Shown piece by piece: positions 6,800-12,080 of a stretch of 12,907 nt of DNA. The first letter of the stretch is position 1; every line of letters begins with the position of its first letter. The DNA is taken from positions 1 to 12,907 of IMG/VR virus record IMGVR_UViG_3300021400_000055; one strand, given 5' to 3'. Position numbers and translations under genes: made by a program. Below the pieces are notes generated by a model. The model did not search any database. It saw nothing but the letters and a program-made list of their open reading frames with translations, and was not told the DNA's origin. This stretch comes from a virus (taxonomy: Duplodnaviria; Heunggongvirae; Uroviricota; Caudoviricetes).

Positions 6800-8521
6800 T
6801 CAAATGTTAGGTCTACCCTCTCTTGATTTTAGAGCTGGTATATTATTAGTACGATCTGGTACCGGATTTGGTTTTTTAGTTTTGTTTTCTATCTGATTAT
6901 TAGTCTGTGACTCTGTTGTAGACACTGTCGTAGTCTTTTCTTGTGCCTTGTCAACATCATTAGGTGATACAAATGGTGTATCAGGAGACACAGTTTCATA
7001 TAGTATGTCTGTTTCTTCTTCTTTGTTTTTCTTCTCGGTTGCGTAGTCGTAGCCAAGATTAGATAACAAGGTCTTTTGTGAGATGATGCCATTTAGAGCT
7101 AGTTGTTGATTTATTGTTTCATCAGTCATGCTTGGTAAGTTAGTGTTTATACTAATAGATATGTCGTCAATATTATAGTATGTATTAGATATAAGGTTGA
7201 TTCTCTGGAAGAAGTTAGCCCATCTATGTTTTATTAGCACCACGATGCCCTGTCTTATGTCGTCTAGCATTAGTGCCATAGTGTAAAATTTTCTATCGAT
7301 AGCGCTCGCATTCATATCTCCTGAGTTAAAGGCTGCGTCAGATGTATTAGGTATACCACTGACCTGAAAAATACTGTCAACGTAGTATTTTAAATATTTT
7401 GTCGCATCCTCTGCGTGTATTTCTTTTAATAGCCAACTGACATCTCCTCCCTCTTGAACGAAGAAAGTGCGTGAGTTCTGTAAATGCTCATCTTCAATTT
7501 CACGAGCTGGGTTTATAATTTTATCTGGATTTGACGCGGAAACGGGTTTCTCTGGGTCAAACGCTGGATTAGGTATTGTTAGTGGGTTCTCAGGACGATA
7601 GCCACTGATTTTTAGTTTAGCATCTGTGTCATTATATTGATACATATTATTTAAATTATTCATAATCTGCTCGTAAGAAGTAACCAGTGGGATTATTGGA
7701 TCTATTATACTTACGCATGGGTCTGGCTCAAACACTGAGAACGTAGGTATCCTATGTGATGATGGTTTCTCTTCTTTTAGTGTTACCACTTCTTTATATT
7801 TATTTGTACTATCTTCACCTGTAGTCTTATCATATATAGATGTTGAATAATTAGATGTGTATGGGTTACATTCAATACAATAGTACAAAGTGTGCTCTTG
7901 ATTGTCTTCTGAGTTACGTGCTGATAAGGTGTAACGTGTAATTAAGGCTACTGCGTTTTGCTGATTTATATCACTGATATCTGTAGGGAATAACGCAACT
8001 GTATTAAGAGCACTGAGTGGATAATATGTATAATTTGGCTCTGAAGATTGAGGAGTAGTACCATCAATAGAATCTGCTTGTGTAGGAGCTAAGTCTAATT
8101 GTCTTTCATATGCACAACCGTAAAGGACTGCATCGTGGAATAATTGCTTCAATACTTTTGAATCATCATTTTTTGATGACAAAGTTGTGATTATAAACTT
8201 CAATTGTGCAGCTGTGTCTGGGTCTAATGGCTCTGTATGTGATGGATGAAGAAGACGGTATGCTGGCTCTTCTGATTGGTCTACAATTTCAGCACTATAT
8301 ACTATTTCTCCACTTAAGTAACCTGCGGCCAAGTCTGTTATAAATTTTTCAAAGAAAACTTGGACTTTGTCACCGGTTGCACTATCAGTAGAAGTAATAC
8401 CACGTAAATATCTATCTTGAATTTCTGCACGTTTATTTAACACGGCATCTACTTCGCTGAACAAATCTTGAATATGACCTGAATCATACTCATCTTTAAT
8501 GTTTTTTGATATTTTTATCAT
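6800..8521 (-). CDS. Portal protein, SPP1 gp6-like (573 aa)
   Basis: Motifs 'KFITDLAAGYLSG', 'IIPLVTSYEQIMNNLNN', 'GGDVSWLLK', 'IFQVSGIPN', 'NASAIDRKF', 'SQKTLLSNLG'; size; AAAGGAGGT RBS. Confidence 0.9.
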   Translation of the reverse strand: MIKISKNIKDEYDSGHIQDLFSEVDAVLNKRAEIQDRYLRGITSTDSATGDKVQVFFEKFITDLAAGYLSGEIVYSAEIVDQSEEPAYRLLHPSHTEPLDPDTAAQLKFIITTLSSKNDDSKVLKQLFHDAVLYGCAYERQLDLAPTQADSIDGTTPQSSEPNYTYYPLSALNTVALFPTDISDINQQNAVALITRYTLSARNSEDNQEHTLYYCIECNPYTSNYSTSIYDKTTGEDSTNKYKEVVTLKEEKPSSHRIPTFSVFEPDPCVSIIDPIIPLVTSYEQIMNNLNNMYQYNDTDAKLKISGYRPENPLTIPNPAFDPEKPVSASNPDKIINPAREIEDEHLQNSRTFFVQEGGDVSWLLKEIHAEDATKYLKYYVDSIFQVSGIPNTSDAAFNSGDMNASAIDRKFYTMALMLDDIRQGIVVLIKHRWANFFQRINLISNTYYNIDDISISINTNLPSMTDETINQQLALNGIISQKTLLSNLGYDYATEKKNKEEETDILYETVSPDTPFVSPNDVDKAQEKTTTVSTTESQTNNQIENKTKKPNPVPDRTNNIPALKSREGRPNI

Positions 8522-8545
8522 CAGGATTTACCTCCTTTTGTTCAC

Positions 8546-8585
8546 ATTATAGTATTTTTTATTTTTAATTACAAGTGGAGTACAA
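8546..8585 (-). promoter_or_regulatory. Portal-operon promoter with upstream TTGTACTCCAC box
   Basis: Minus strand TTGTAA (8574-8569), 17-nt spacer, TATAAT (8551-8546); same 14-mer as 3161-3174 in the same register. Confidence 0.75.
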
Positions 8586-8756
8586 CTTCGTTGTCTTTTC
8601 CTCCGACAACAGTCGGGGGAGATCCCAATTTAGTTTACATAATGTTGTGATGTTGATATATGTTTTGTGAGTCGCCAGTACATTTGCCTGCTCGCAAAGA
8701 TATACTAGGCAAGGCTTTGCAGGTTTTTAGTACGTAAAAAGTTAGCTAAAAAATTG

Positions 8757-8785
8757 TTGTAAATGTTTATAAAATTTGGTATAAT
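8757..8785 (+). promoter_or_regulatory. Early sigmaA promoter with extended -10
   Basis: TTGTAA (8757-8762), 17 nt, TATAAT (8780-8785), with TG at 8777-8778 (TGnTATAAT); upstream of the small-gene array. Confidence 0.8.
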
Positions 8786-8799
8786 AAAATAAAAAAGAC

Positions 8800-8828
8800 T
8801 GTTTATATTTATATTATAAATATAAACA
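8800..8828. promoter_or_regulatory. Perfect 29-bp palindrome (operator or 5' hairpin)
   Basis: tgtttatatttata-t-tataaatataaaca, 14-bp arms, between the early promoter and the first RBS. Confidence 0.6.
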
Positions 8829-8849
8829 CAAAAAAAAGAGGTGGTAAAA

Positions 8850-8972
8850 ATGAAAAAAGAAATTGAAAACAAAATCAATGACTTAATATACAAAGCTAAT
8901 CACACAAGCGACTTTAAAAGGTGGCAAAAAATAAATGCACAAATAAACAAGTTAAAAAAAGGAGTTGATTAA
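8850..8972 (+). CDS. Small early protein, 40 aa (MKKEIENKINDLIYKANHTSDFKRWQKINAQINKLKKGVD)
   Basis: Read by hand. AAGAGGTGG RBS; TAA lies inside junction repeat copy 1. Confidence 0.7.
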   Translation: MKKEIENKINDLIYKANHTSDFKRWQKINAQINKLKKGVD

Positions 8973-8973
8973 A

Positions 8974-9072
8974 ATGAAATATGAGCAATTAATACAAGAA
9001 TTATTAAACACAAGAATTAATGACATAAAAAGAATAAATGAAATTTTAAAGAAATTGAAAGGAGTTGATTAA
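8974..9072 (+). CDS. Small early protein, 32 aa (MKYEQLIQELLNTRINDIKRINEILKKLKGVD)
   Basis: Read by hand. Runs exactly from junction repeat 1 (RBS and ATG) to the TAA in repeat 2. Confidence 0.7.
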   Translation: MKYEQLIQELLNTRINDIKRINEILKKLKGVD

Positions 9073-9073
9073 A

Positions 9074-9346
9074 ATGATTTTATTGTATGAGTTAAAACCA
9101 AAATTTGACAGAGCAAAAAGTTTTTACAAAAAAGCAAATGTATACAGAGATGACGAAGGCAATATTTTACTAATGAGCTACACAACAATAGTTGCAAAAA
9201 TTACAGATAAAATTGCAACAGAAGATGGCAAGGAAAAAGTTGAAGTTTATGGTTATTATTCAGCAACAACAGCAAGACATATAAACGAATTTTTACAACA
9301 ATATGGTTATCCAAAAATGAATAAAAAAGAAATGGAAAGGAGTTGA
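9074..9346 (+). CDS. Conserved phage hypothetical protein (90 aa)
   Basis: True ATG is in junction repeat 2. 'KSFYKKA..LMSYTTIVA..GYYSATTARHINEFLQQYG' resembles a widespread uncharacterised Firmicute phage family (recognised from memory). Confidence 0.8.
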   Translation: MILLYELKPKFDRAKSFYKKANVYRDDEGNILLMSYTTIVAKITDKIATEDGKEKVEVYGYYSATTARHINEFLQQYGYPKMNKKEMERS

Positions 9347-9351
9347 TTAAA

Positions 9352-9714
9352 ATGAAAACAATTAATGCAAAACTATTTGCACTAAAGTACAAACTTTTGA
9401 AGAAACTAAACGCAAGTTTAGAGAAAGATAAAGAAGCAATAAAAAATGGTGCAAAAATAACATTTGAAAATTATGCAAAAATTCAACTTGTTGAATGTAC
9501 TAGAAAATCATATTCAAAAGAAGTACAACAAGAGCTTGAAGAATATGCAAAATCAAAAGGTTACGAAAAACAAGAAACTAAATACATTAGAGTAGATGTT
9601 GACTGTATAGATGATGACATTGACAGCAAGGTCGATAGCATACTAGACACCTTAGAAGACAGCAACGACAGGGATATAAGAAGAGTAGCCAGCAAAGTAG
9701 CGAATAAAAAATAA
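9352..9714 (+). CDS. Hypothetical early protein (120 aa)
   Basis: True ATG is in junction repeat 3; clean A-rich coding-strand ORF. Confidence 0.8.
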   Translation: MKTINAKLFALKYKLLKKLNASLEKDKEAIKNGAKITFENYAKIQLVECTRKSYSKEVQQELEEYAKSKGYEKQETKYIRVDVDCIDDDIDSKVDSILDTLEDSNDRDIRRVASKVANKK

Positions 9715-9737
9715 GGGGGCGACCCTAAAAAGCCCCC
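9715..9737 (-). terminator. GC hairpin with U-tract on the antisense strand
   Basis: GGGGGC-N11-GCCCCC flanked by A-tracts on the plus strand, so followed by TTATTTTTT only on the minus strand. Confidence 0.45.
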
Positions 9738-9762
9738 CCAAAAAAGAAAGGAGTTGATTAAA

Positions 9763-9876
9763 ATGAGATATGAAGATTACCAAGAATATTTCAATATTGA
9801 ATATATACCAAACAACACAATAAAAGAAGCATACGAGGAATTTAAAGAGGGGGGTGAAGAATATGAAGAGCAATAA
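9763..9876 (+). CDS. Small acidic early protein, 37 aa (MRYEDYQEYFNIEYIPNNTIKEAYEEFKEGGEEYEEQ)
   Basis: Read by hand. RBS and ATG from junction repeat 4; TAA at 9874-9876. Confidence 0.65.
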   Translation: MRYEDYQEYFNIEYIPNNTIKEAYEEFKEGGEEYEEQ

Positions 9877-10033
9877 ATTATTCAATCAATACAGAAGAAT
9901 ATCATTCAAAACTTTTATGATAAATACAAGCGAGCGACCAAGTAGTAAAGACCTACAAAAATTAAATAACTATAACATCAAAATGCAACAAATTGAAAAA
10001 CAGCTAAATGAGCAAGGGGTTTACATTCACTAA
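9863..10033 (+). CDS. Small early protein, 56 aa (MKSNKLFNQYRRISFKTFMINTSERPSSKDLQKLNNYNIKMQQIEKQLNEQGVYIH)
   Basis: Read by hand. GAGGGGGGTGA RBS; overlaps the previous gene by 14 nt. Confidence 0.65.
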   Translation: MKSNKLFNQYRRISFKTFMINTSERPSSKDLQKLNNYNIKMQQIEKQLNEQGVYIH

Positions 10034-10103
10034 AGTAGAAACGCTCCCGAATGTTTTAAATAGGAGGGGGTGCGAAGAGTATACCAAGAAAGGAGGTGAT
10101 TAT

Positions 10104-10229
10104 ATGGAGGAATTAATCAAAGAGCTAGATGAATTGCAAAATGAATTAAGAGGGGCAGATATGTCTATCCCAGAAAATGTACAAAAATACAACAGAATGC
10201 AAGAATTAATAAAAGAAATTTATAAATAG
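10104..10229 (+). CDS. Small helical early protein, 41 aa (MEELIKELDELQNELRGADMSIPENVQKYNRMQELIKEIYK)
   Basis: True start at 10104 behind a perfect AAAGGAGGTGA RBS; the listed 10008 start is an upstream extension with no RBS. Confidence 0.75.
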   Translation: MEELIKELDELQNELRGADMSIPENVQKYNRMQELIKEIYK

Positions 10230-10241
10230 GAGGTGATTAAT

Positions 10242-10457
10242 ATGAGAATGAATTTAATTAACAAAATCTACAACTTACTAGTAAAACACAACATTACAGA
10301 TATATACAACAGCCTAAGTATTGATACACATACAATTGTACTACAAGAAGACAATGTGACAGTACATGAAGTATACACATATGGATATGCTGACATCATC
10401 GGACTAACAAGTGAAGAATTCGCAACATTAGAATATACATTAAACAGCACAAATTAA
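10242..10457 (+). CDS. Hypothetical early protein (71 aa)
   Basis: AGGAGGTGA RBS overlapping the previous stop; ATG at 10242. Confidence 0.75.
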   Translation: MRMNLINKIYNLLVKHNITDIYNSLSIDTHTIVLQEDNVTVHEVYTYGYADIIGLTSEEFATLEYTLNSTN

Positions 10458-10713
10458 TATAGAAAGGGGGTGATTATATGACACAAATCATTTATACAAT
10501 AGTAAAAAACAACGAGCTAATATTAGCACAGAATATTCCATACGATGACAAGACAGAAGCAAAAAGACAATTAAAAACAGTATACGAGGACATCAAGACA
10601 AAACCAAATATTAAAGACATCACATACAACAGCACACAATTAATCTTTACAGATACAGCCGAAAACGACAGCGATGAAATACATAAATTTGAAATAATAT
10701 AGAAAGGGGGTGA
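10455..10713 (+). repeat. Second junction repeat family taatatagaaagggggtga (2 exact 19-bp copies)
   Basis: Copies at 10455-10473 and 10695-10713. Also 10087-10106 matches 10461-10480 at 19 of 20 positions. Confidence 0.85.
10478..10702 (+). CDS. Hypothetical early protein (74 aa)
   Basis: AAAGGGGGTGA RBS; bounded by the two 19-bp junction repeats. Confidence 0.75.
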   Translation: MTQIIYTIVKNNELILAQNIPYDDKTEAKRQLKTVYEDIKTKPNIKDITYNSTQLIFTDTAENDSDEIHKFEII

Positions 10714-10717
10714 GCTT

Positions 10718-11026
10718 ATGGAAAAATATACACTATATGTAGGCTTAAATGATAAAGACAAAAAACAACAACTAATCAGCACCATAGAGGCATACAAAAT
10801 TTGTAATAACATTTTATTACACTATACGGACGGAGCTACAATATTCGAGGCAAGTGGTATATATAAACATCAAGACGGCACATTCACAATAGAGAAAACC
10901 CTACGTATAGAGTTATTATTCACAAATAAAGAAACCATTGACAGTATAGTACAAGACCTAAAGAAAGCATTTAATCAAGAAAGCATTGCGGTACAAAAGC
11001 AAGTAATAGACAGCTATTTGATGTAA
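10718..11026 (+). CDS. DUF3574-like / possible phage SAM-lyase-fold protein (102 aa)
   Basis: 'LYVGL...DGATIFEASGIY...G..TIEKTLRIEL...LKKAFNQESI' fits the DUF3574 pattern and the GxY..E..Q(D/E) layout recalled for T3-type SAM lyases. Confidence 0.6.
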   Translation: MEKYTLYVGLNDKDKKQQLISTIEAYKICNNILLHYTDGATIFEASGIYKHQDGTFTIEKTLRIELLFTNKETIDSIVQDLKKAFNQESIAVQKQVIDSYLM

Positions 11027-11048
11027 ACAGATATATAATGATACGATA

Positions 11049-11077
11049 TTGACTTTTAATTAAAACTATGGTATAAT
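11049..11077 (+). promoter_or_regulatory. Near-consensus sigmaA promoter for the AAA/DUF2201 operon
   Basis: TTGACT (11049-11054), 17 nt, TATAAT (11072-11077), with extended -10 TG at 11069-11070. Confidence 0.85.
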
Positions 11078-11089
11078 TAAAAGTGAACA

Positions 11090-11128
11090 GTGTATGGACA
11101 AGCCGAGTGCTTAATCTTAGCCATACAC
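11090..11128 (+). other. Structured 5' leader hairpin
   Basis: GTGTATGG (11090-11097) pairs with CCATACAC (11121-11128), enclosing an AAGC-cgagt-GCTT sub-hairpin, between the promoter and the RBS. Confidence 0.55.
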
Positions 11129-11144
11129 AAGAAAGGAGAATTTT

Positions 11145-12080
11145 ATGGAATTATTAATTGCGGACAAAATGAGACAAGTGGAAACAATTACACCTAGTCA
11201 ATACAAAAAACTACTTAAGGACGGTGGCAACAGAATGAATATATTCACATATGGCAAATCTGGTATAGGTAAATCAGCCATTGTGAAAGAATACGGAGAT
11301 GAAGAGGGCTTGAAAGTCATTCCATTTTCACTAGCAACAGAAATGCCAGAGGCTATGGGTGGTATTCCACACGCAACACAATCAGAGAAAGCAGTCGAAT
11401 ACTTTACAAGACTATTAGACGAAAGATTAAAACCACTATTTGAAACAGAGGGCAAAGGATATATACTATTCTTTGATGAGATGAACCAAGCACTACCAGA
11501 AGTATTAAATGCTTGTTACAGCATATGTCACCCAAACCCAGAGGAAAGAAACTGGTGCGGACACTCTTTAAAGTATGCACAAATAGTTGGTGCGGGTAAC
11601 TTATCAACAGGTGAAGACGGTACAGTGTACTTAAATGATATACCAACACCACTACACAACAGATTTCACATCTTTGAATTGAAATCAAATAAGAAAGACA
11701 CAAAGGACTACTTAAAAGCGAAATATAAAAACATACCACAAGTAGCCAAATACATCGACGTACTACTAGATGAAGACATACCACCTAGAGACATTGACGG
11801 TATACTACAAGTATTAGAATACAATATGGACGGCTTATGGATTTCAAGTAAAATAGGCAGTGCATTAACAACTAAACTATTTGACATACAGAAGAAAGTT
11901 AAATCAGTAGACCCAGCCAAAGCATTGAAAGCTTGTAGAGAGACATACGAGGCATTCAAGGAAAATGGTAGAGTATTATGGGCTGGTGATTACATAGAAG
12001 AAGAGGAGGACTTACTAAACGAATTCAGTAACATCTTAAGTGAAGAAGAAATCAAAAGTATAGTGAAAGGGGGCGAGTAA
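11145..12080 (+). CDS. MoxR-like AAA+ ATPase (311 aa)
   Basis: Walker A GKSGIGKS, Walker B ILFFDEMN, sensor-1 GAGN, arginine finger LHNRF; GAAAGGAG RBS; adjacent DUF2201-like gene. Confidence 0.88.
   Translation: MELLIADKMRQVETITPSQYKKLLKDGGNRMNIFTYGKSGIGKSAIVKEYGDEEGLKVIPFSLATEMPEAMGGIPHATQSEKAVEYFTRLLDERLKPLFETEGKGYILFFDEMNQALPEVLNACYSICHPNPEERNWCGHSLKYAQIVGAGNLSTGEDGTVYLNDIPTPLHNRFHIFELKSNKKDTKDYLKAKYKNIPQVAKYIDVLLDEDIPPRDIDGILQVLEYNMDGLWISSKIGSALTTKLFDIQKKVKSVDPAKALKACRETYEAFKENGRVLWAGDYIEEEEDLLNEFSNILSEEEIKSIVKGGE

Follow-up and report, generated by a model that had tools for sequence, protein, structure and literature searches.

Does phage mosaicism come from homologous exchange at short boundary sequences that phages share, or do random illegitimate joints form first and selection then sort them? 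This old and unsettled question is raised by a row of small genes in a 12,907-nucleotide (nt) stretch of phage DNA (hereafter the window), which is the initial 12.9 kb of a virus record complete at 77,398 bp (IMGVR_UViG_3300021400_000055; G+C content 32%, terminal repeat of 51 bp). The record comes from ruminant gut samples and the 77-kb rumen phage is described as lytic. Head genes occupy the minus strand of the window, the last of them encoding an SPP1-type portal (6800-8521), and the plus strand carries an array, flanked by the portal gene on one side and an AAA ATPase gene on the other, of ten open reading frames (ORFs) that begin with ATG, encode 32-120 amino acids (aa), span positions 8850-11026 and lie behind a single promoter-like site. 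These genes are numbered g1 to g10 here. Four consecutive starts, those of g2 to g5, carry one and the same 20-mer, AAAGGAGTTGATTAAAATGA. With four identical 20-nt junctions at known spacings, many natural relatives that have different gene sets and a candidate annealase, the array offers a clean test of the mosaicism question. The answer developed below is that there is good support for a common descent of the four copies and for their working as translation junctions, and that the 20-mer probably serves, on balance, as a shared boundary between genes as well.

Anatomy and origin of the 20-mer

The four exact copies are all on the plus strand, in the promoter-proximal half of the array, at spacings of 100, 278 and 411 bp. 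They are listed here with the more divergent junctions further downstream.

8958-8977, plus: J1, exact 20-mer; final codons and TAA of g1, Shine-Dalgarno sequence (SD) and ATG of g2
9058-9077, plus: J2, exact 20-mer; TAA of g2 ends here, SD and ATG of g3
9336-9355, plus: J3, exact 20-mer; TGA of g3, SD and ATG of g4
9747-9766, plus: J4, exact 20-mer; after a hairpin, no upstream ORF ending inside, SD and ATG of g5
10226-10245, plus: degenerate junction, three mismatches to the 20-mer; TAG of g7, SD and ATG of g8
10455-10480, plus: second-family junction TAATATAGAAAGGGGGTGATTATATG; TAA of g8, SD and ATG of g9; the match of a contig from run X6 stops at 10473
10695-10720, plus: second-family junction; TAG of g9, SD and ATG of g10; from 10694 on, run X6 matches again

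Each copy of the 20-mer is a translation start. A core SD, AAAGGAG, is followed in all four by a 9-nt spacer holding the upstream stop and then by ATG; the 12-nt stretch AAAGGAGTTGAT complements the 16S 3' end with one mismatch, and the junction taken as a whole departs at a single position from the full 16S 3'-end complement, AGAAAGGAGGTGAT. The TAA codons of g1 and g2, whose products both end KGVD, stand 1 nt before the next ATG, and the TGA of g3 stands 5 nt before it. Since the junction thus holds an SD, stops in two frames and an ATG, ribosomes ending one small early gene could restart on the next, and we infer that the array genes are translationally coupled and expressed early. Together with the 11 bases upstream of it, J2 matches J3 at 29/31 positions, in different reading frames. 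The 20-mer contains no inverted repeats and forms no palindrome, and the array genes are not bracketed by a pair of inverted repeats.

Most of this layout had been described in an earlier, sequence-only reading of the window, and its account of ten ORFs of 32-120 aa after one promoter (found as the promoter-like site at 8757-8785), of four identical junctions, of TAA and TGA usage and of a second junction family was confirmed throughout, the last in the form of an 86% likeness between 10452-10480 and 10692-10720 and of only two mismatches between 10088-10108 and 10461-10481. That reading had also noted that all four copies share one deviation from the ideal SD and had taken this as a sign of common descent. 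The SD had to be redescribed, its effective form being AAAGGAG with the 9-nt spacer, and the descent argument stood, on the strength of the null model and the genome-wide distances given next.

Dinucleotide shuffles lead one to expect 0.01 copies of the 20-mer, against the four found, and no further match with up to two mismatches exists anywhere else in the 77,398-bp genome; the 20-mer is therefore confined to the array and is not, as simple SD selection would have it, repeated at most ribosome-binding sites (RBSs) genome-wide. When 21-mers were compared at the 122 starts of the genome that combine an SD, an ATG and an ORF, their mean pairwise distance was 11.1, and pairs at a distance of 0-1 occurred exclusively in the array. 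Outside this genome the exact 20-mer has 10 single matches among the 2.9 million viral contigs of IMG/VR, representing about 4-5 independent lineages, and 28 single matches in 596 Gb of prokaryote genomes. An assembly artefact was rejected, the sequence being identical in three assemblies and in a second sample.

Functional constraint on such junctions was captured by a null model in the form of a position weight matrix (PWM) built from 103 junctions of the relatives' arrays described below. It gives a probability of 1.5e-5 for an identical pair, and at least three identical junctions among ten appeared in 0 of 200,000 simulations, which argues that the four copies share descent. Identical pairs of non-orthologous junctions are more frequent in the relatives themselves (9/5033, about 100 times the PWM expectation of 1.5e-5), and even at this empirical rate the probability of four identical junctions of ten is about 1e-6. 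Every junction family is complementary to the 16S 3' end (AGAAAGGAGGTGAT) with at most one mismatch, and a stop and an ATG come after this stretch. SD selection explains part of the likeness between families, not the 20/20 identity of the four copies.

Gene content and breakpoints in related phages

Relatives were found in rumen and gut metagenome contigs through the ATPase and portal flanks (ATPase 77-96% aa identity). A search with g4 gave 99 clusters of homologues, and context look-ups added further arrays; a scan of viral contigs with the g4 alignment brought no new loci. The array is hyperplastic in these relatives. Gene content between portal and ATPase, far from being invariant, is different in nearly every one of them, against flanks of 72-85% (portal) and 77-89% (ATPase) aa identity, only g4 being widely kept, and in the arrays of 18 relatives g2 and g7 have no homologue and g3 has one in a single array. 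On the left flank, homology stops at the promoter-like site (8757-8785) or slightly past it.

All arrays share one architecture, in which the SD of each gene lies within the final codons of the preceding gene and the stop is located 1 nt before the ATG. It is because these final codons encode the SD of the next gene that unrelated array proteins end KGVD, KGGE or KEVK. The junction type GAAAGGAGTTG[A/G]TTAAAATGA is found in relatives before at least nine unrelated gene families, and would therefore act as a shared boundary sequence. In L010 the exact 20-mer stands between non-homologous genes, the genomes being only about 76-80% identical; L035 has a 1-nt variant twice, variants differing by 1-2 nt occur in L035, L126, L128, L121 and L034, and in L120 a single nt distinguishes the junction of g4 from that of g5. 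The junctions before g4 and g5 are not conserved between relatives. That before g4 differs at 8/18 bases between the window phage and L127, whereas the 15 bases directly upstream are identical, and g3 has 78% aa identity to its L127 homologue, where the junction differs.

Position in the array also matters. In the arrays of 12 relatives the 20-mer type is always promoter-proximal (mean relative rank 0.27) and AAAGGAGGTGAAATAATATGA is always distal (0.91, p = 3e-6), a pattern that is confounded by g4/g5 orthology. The split between these two junction dialects, ...GGAGTTGATTAAAATGA in promoter-proximal and ...GGAGGTGAAATAATATGA in distal positions, is strict in the 12 relatives. A further observation concerns the contigs L146 (position 4346) and L149, which are otherwise about 98% identical and differ by two adjacent substitutions in one junction (GGAGATAAATAAT versus GGAGGTGAATAAT). 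This suggests that junctions change faster than their flanks, or in patches.

Homology breakpoints are located at junctions or start codons. The block of homology around g4 begins at 9314-9326 in six relatives that have differing genes upstream. In run X6, one contig matches the window over 9733-10473 and then diverges, and another resumes at 10694, g9 being replaced between these points with each end in a second-family junction. A 75-nt intergenic module (10034-10108) has a counterpart, 85-90% identical, that sits between g10 and another gene in four relatives; homology of the module ends at most 5 nt past the ATG, beyond which unrelated proteins are encoded. One recent event was seen among the P0084 contigs, which encode an identical g4 protein. 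Here a 61-aa gene is present in L134 and lacking in L136, and this scarless indel in a sister lineage is bordered in L134 by junctions that share about 17 nt, L136 having a single hybrid junction in their place. In the same contigs, genes of 84 and 122 aa interchange between a common SD/start and the next junction.

Competing explanations of the repeat

The account that we favour, and hold to be probable on balance, is that the 20-mer is a compact translation junction acting as a shared boundary, or gene connector, in a hyperplastic early array. One version of the junction would have been copied to the four consecutive starts of g2 to g5, and the same junction type would circulate in the gene pool of related phages, before many unrelated genes. 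Whole genes would then be added, removed or replaced when strands anneal or cross over in the junction homology, some 20-30 nt long, or through other events that preserve this homology, and exchange at the junctions would leave expression of the array genes unbroken. The complete genome has no tyrosine or serine recombinase (neither PF00589 nor PF00239 gave a match, with positive controls) and no RecT or Rad52-type protein, and an ERF-like signal is weak. It does encode a Sak4-like AAA_24 protein (73.6 bits) that adjoins a DUF669 protein (genome positions 48769-49978; L143:1504-2710), and these two are the candidate catalysts of the exchange. Sak4-type proteins anneal single strands with a cognate single-strand-binding protein, and it is by analogy with this activity that the AAA_24/DUF669 pair is a plausible catalyst of exchange at short homologies. 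The AAA_24 and DUF669 genes have translation starts of their own that differ at just 2/21 positions.

The sequence-only reading had proposed that short-homology recombination between junctions lets single genes be gained, lost or shuffled. A hyperplastic array and breakpoints at junctions or starts agree with this proposal, and gene shuffling through the junctions is plausible and, judged on sequence comparison, partly supported. Several observations nevertheless weigh against it. A joint between two of the four copies was sought in contigs of four runs over 8000-11700 and none was seen; two reported joints (8595>8656 and 8795>9539) were disregarded, the shorter side comprising just 22 letters and each resting on one contig. 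All near-identical copies of the phage have the same ten genes in the same order, and two more sets of close relatives are without change in gene content. (Apparent differences in content in two sets, P0047 and P0078, were traced to runs of N in scaffolds and to a 1-nt frameshift, respectively.) The earlier expectation that breakpoints in relatives fall within the junction also met an exception, a recent 35-bp deletion in L124, which takes out a start codon at a site outside the junctions. Similarity between non-orthologous junctions is 4.1% within genomes and 2.5% between them, a marginal difference (p = 0.035), and once this genome is left out the corresponding values are 2.7% and 2.2%, with no excess. 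About 17/21 junction positions are functionally constrained, which alone yields near-identical junctions, and a general likeness among junctions is therefore expected. Finally, the gaps between array genes measure 1-5 nt, so that recombinants preserving the genes must break near a junction, and illegitimate recombination with selection for intact genes predicts similar breakpoints.

Much of this is what would be expected if the junctions were merely strong translation starts, their identical copies having been made locally on a few occasions, by slippage, patch conversion or small duplications, and being kept by selection for expression, with turnover by illegitimate recombination at any position, whose gene-breaking products are purged. 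Junctions would then coincide with breakpoints but not bring them about. The complementarity of every junction family to the 16S 3' end, the non-junction deletion in L124, junction types that are common between genomes about as often as within them (this genome excluded), the absence of a joint between copies from the contigs and constant content among near-identical copies all speak for such an origin. It has more difficulty with the scarless L134/L136 indel, both ends of which lie within about 17 nt of common junction sequence, with the exact 20-mer at non-orthologous positions in L010 despite genomes about 76-80% identical, and with identical non-orthologous junctions some hundredfold above the PWM expectation (9/5033 versus 1.5e-5). 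We regard this explanation as a serious but doubtful one. Confinement of the junction type to promoter-proximal positions (rank 0.27 versus 0.91, p = 3e-6), and the presence in several genomes of a variant of their own in duplicate (two copies in L035; g4 and g5 junctions differing by 1 nt in L120), would also suit a messenger RNA operator through which a trans-acting phage factor jointly switches off the first early genes, binding selection keeping the copies identical. T4 RegA and RegB provide models for such a factor, as a translational repressor and as an SD-cutting endoribonuclease. An operator is improbable, however: no candidate regulator and no complementary sequence were identified in the genome, the genes behind the junction vary from phage to phage, so that there is no conserved regulon, an identity over 20 nt exceeds what an operator typically needs, and the positional pattern is confounded by the orthology of g4 and g5.

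The array might also have grown from one small ancestral gene that was duplicated in tandem along with its junction, the bodies of the copies having since diverged past recognition; this is suggested by g1 and g2, which are both short, lysine-rich helical peptides ending KGVD. Such an origin was rejected as very improbable, since g3 (DUF8033) and g4 each belong to a separate, well-populated family, J4 is preceded by a hairpin and not by a gene, the peptides encoded in J2 and J3 differ, as do their frames, and junctions identical at 20/20 positions are incompatible with bodies that have diverged to no detectable similarity. The boundary reading can also be put in a stronger form, which we think rather unlikely. 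The junction would be a dedicated promoter-less and integrase-less cassette adaptor, by means of which a Sak4-like and DUF669 annealing recombinase plugs counter-defence or host-takeover genes into the early operon, with the proximal ...GGAGTTGATTAAAATG and distal ...GGAGGTGAAATAATATG dialects as separate exchange compartments across the rumen phage population. If exchange at the junctions is real, it would explain how early operons gain counter-defence genes, such as the S-adenosyl methionine (SAM)-lyase-like g10 described below, without new promoters, and nature would have supplied a design rule by which genes can be inserted into phage operons. Otherwise the array is a good example of strong convergence and copying of translation signals.

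Array genes and comparison with known systems

The promoter-like sites, genes and intergenic elements of the array are as follows.

8757-8785, plus: sigma-70-type promoter-like site with extended -10, before the array; TTGTAA, 17 nt, TGnTATAAT; 10/12 matches
8850-8972, plus: g1, 40 aa; C-terminus KGVD, TAA within J1; homologues in L035 and L121 at 71-75% nt identity
8974-9072, plus: g2, 32 aa; C-terminus KGVD; no homologue among the arrays of 18 relatives
9074-9346, plus: g3, 90 aa, phrog_4264 / DUF8033; stop is the TGA within J3
9352-9714, plus: g4, 120 aa; sole array gene retained in nearly all relatives
9715-9737, plus: G+C-rich hairpin after g4, no U-tract; -13.3 kcal/mol, z -2.1; position conserved in relatives
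9763-9876, plus: g5, 37 aa; 14-nt overlap with g6
9863-10033, plus: g6, 56 aa; ATG ORF
10034-10108, plus: intergenic module of a hairpin, then GAAGAGTATACCAA, then SD and ATG; module of relatives about 85-90% identical, between other genes
10104-10229, plus: g7, 41 aa; SD-preceded ATG chosen, alternative ATG at 10008; no homologue in relatives
10242-10457, plus: g8, 71 aa; ATG ORF
10478-10702, plus: g9, 74 aa; other sequence in its place in run X6
10718-11026, plus: g10, 102 aa, DUF3574, predicted SAM-lyase-like fold; Pfam match and structure model
11049-11077, plus: next promoter-like site, which closes the array and would drive the conserved AAA ATPase operon; 11/12 matches; conserved in relatives

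Searches of PHROG and Pfam returned nothing above threshold for g1, g2 and g4 to g9, and the structure model of g4 (predicted local distance difference test, pLDDT, 81.5) has no PDB match; an Rfam search of 8500-11300 gave no match. Part of g3 (9250-9338) is matched at 77-81% nt identity by hypothetical genes in many phages of Staphylococcus and Mammaliicoccus, the genomes of which are otherwise unrelated. Public records contain 103-aa (also 82-aa) calls of 'g3' that overlap g4. Their interpretation as a junction variant was rejected, the DNA of L164 and L165 being identical to the window, and the long calls there therefore read TGA as sense; the g3 call in GCA_001684375.1 resembles them in form. 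A hairpin directly 3' of g4 (9715-9737) is found at the same place in all relatives, and L132, L134 and L136 have a second hairpin after g4, followed by an additional gene. In the 10034-10108 module, one stem position changes between this phage and the relatives (C-G -> U-G). The arrays of L121, L123, L146 and others include a RadC-like gene (PF04002, 144-153 aa) that the window does not have.

For the last gene of the array, g10, a function is indicated. It matches PF12098 (DUF3574) with 37 bits, above the cut-off, and PF23780 (S-AdoMet_lyase) with 22.2 bits against a cut-off of 28 (E 1.4e-4). Its structure model (pLDDT 91.5) has a PII/CutA-like ferredoxin fold, and the top PDB matches in Foldseek, 6zm9 and 6znb (E 1e-6 to 2e-6, TMq 0.66-0.71, 23-24% identity), are phage SAM lyases. 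Judged by its model, g10 resembles a SAM lyase. Of the earlier proposal of a host-takeover or anti-defence array, a counter-defence role is thus plausible for one gene at least. More than 570 relatives of g10 are present in gut and rumen data.

How does the array compare with systems already described? The promoter-early stem-loop (PeSL) cassettes of T4-type phages are an obvious parallel. Recombination between PeSL copies explains insertions, deletions and replacements, and mini-circles as well as promoter and terminator activity have been demonstrated by experiment (PMC2839356, PMC4122927). Both systems place repeated regulatory junctions among small, non-essential genes in hyperplastic regions, and in both the junction runs from an upstream stop to a downstream SD and start. 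PeSLs, however, are much longer and contain a sigma-70 promoter and a terminator stem-loop, whereas the 20-mer contains neither. Only two strong promoter-like sites occur on the plus strand of the array, both outside the copies of the 20-mer, leaving all ten genes on one promoter, and hairpins are found only after g4 and g6, none of them inside the 20-mer. Having neither promoter nor stem-loop, the 20-mer is not a PeSL.

Integron cassette arrays resemble this one in that small, exchangeable genes without promoters of their own line up behind a promoter, with repeated junctions between them. The likeness does not extend to mechanism, because there is no integrase and no attC: no tyrosine recombinase and no attC-like imperfect palindrome are present here, and the junction is a translation signal. 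Of the earlier description as an integron-like array without an integrase, the second half agrees with what was found, while 'integron-like' goes too far for a locus that has neither a site-specific recombinase nor any attC-like structure. The host-takeover module of Bacillus phage SPO1 also consists of many small early genes with strong early promoters, in a Firmicutes-type phage, that are thought to act on the host (PMC6873191, PMC10531801). The parallel goes no further than layout: a relation in sequence was not found and, as far as could be checked, that module has not been described as having repeated identical junctions.

Another close relative in concept is the short conserved boundary, or linker, sequence of mosaic phages, which has been proposed to mediate homologous exchange of modules, an old idea that PMC3029335 summarises (its refs 21-22). 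In this concept a short sequence is common to the gene borders of related phages, mosaic breakpoints coincide with it, and general or phage recombination functions suffice, with no site-specific enzyme. The common border sequence has its counterpart in the array; breakpoints at junctions or starts are seen there too, in places where selection for intact genes would also put them, and exchange would likewise need no site-specific enzyme. What sets the array apart is that its boundary consists of nothing but the translation junction (SD, stop and start within 20-31 nt), and it is repeated at four consecutive borders in one operon, in two positional types, proximal and distal. A full-text literature search for a junction made of RBS, stop and start only and acting as a recombination site returned none, and brought up only PeSLs and the general idea of boundary sequences. 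The concept of boundary sequences and of PeSLs is already known, then (PMC3029335, PMC2839356), and it is within this concept that the 20-mer finds its place; the best description of it is a boundary sequence pared down to a translation junction.

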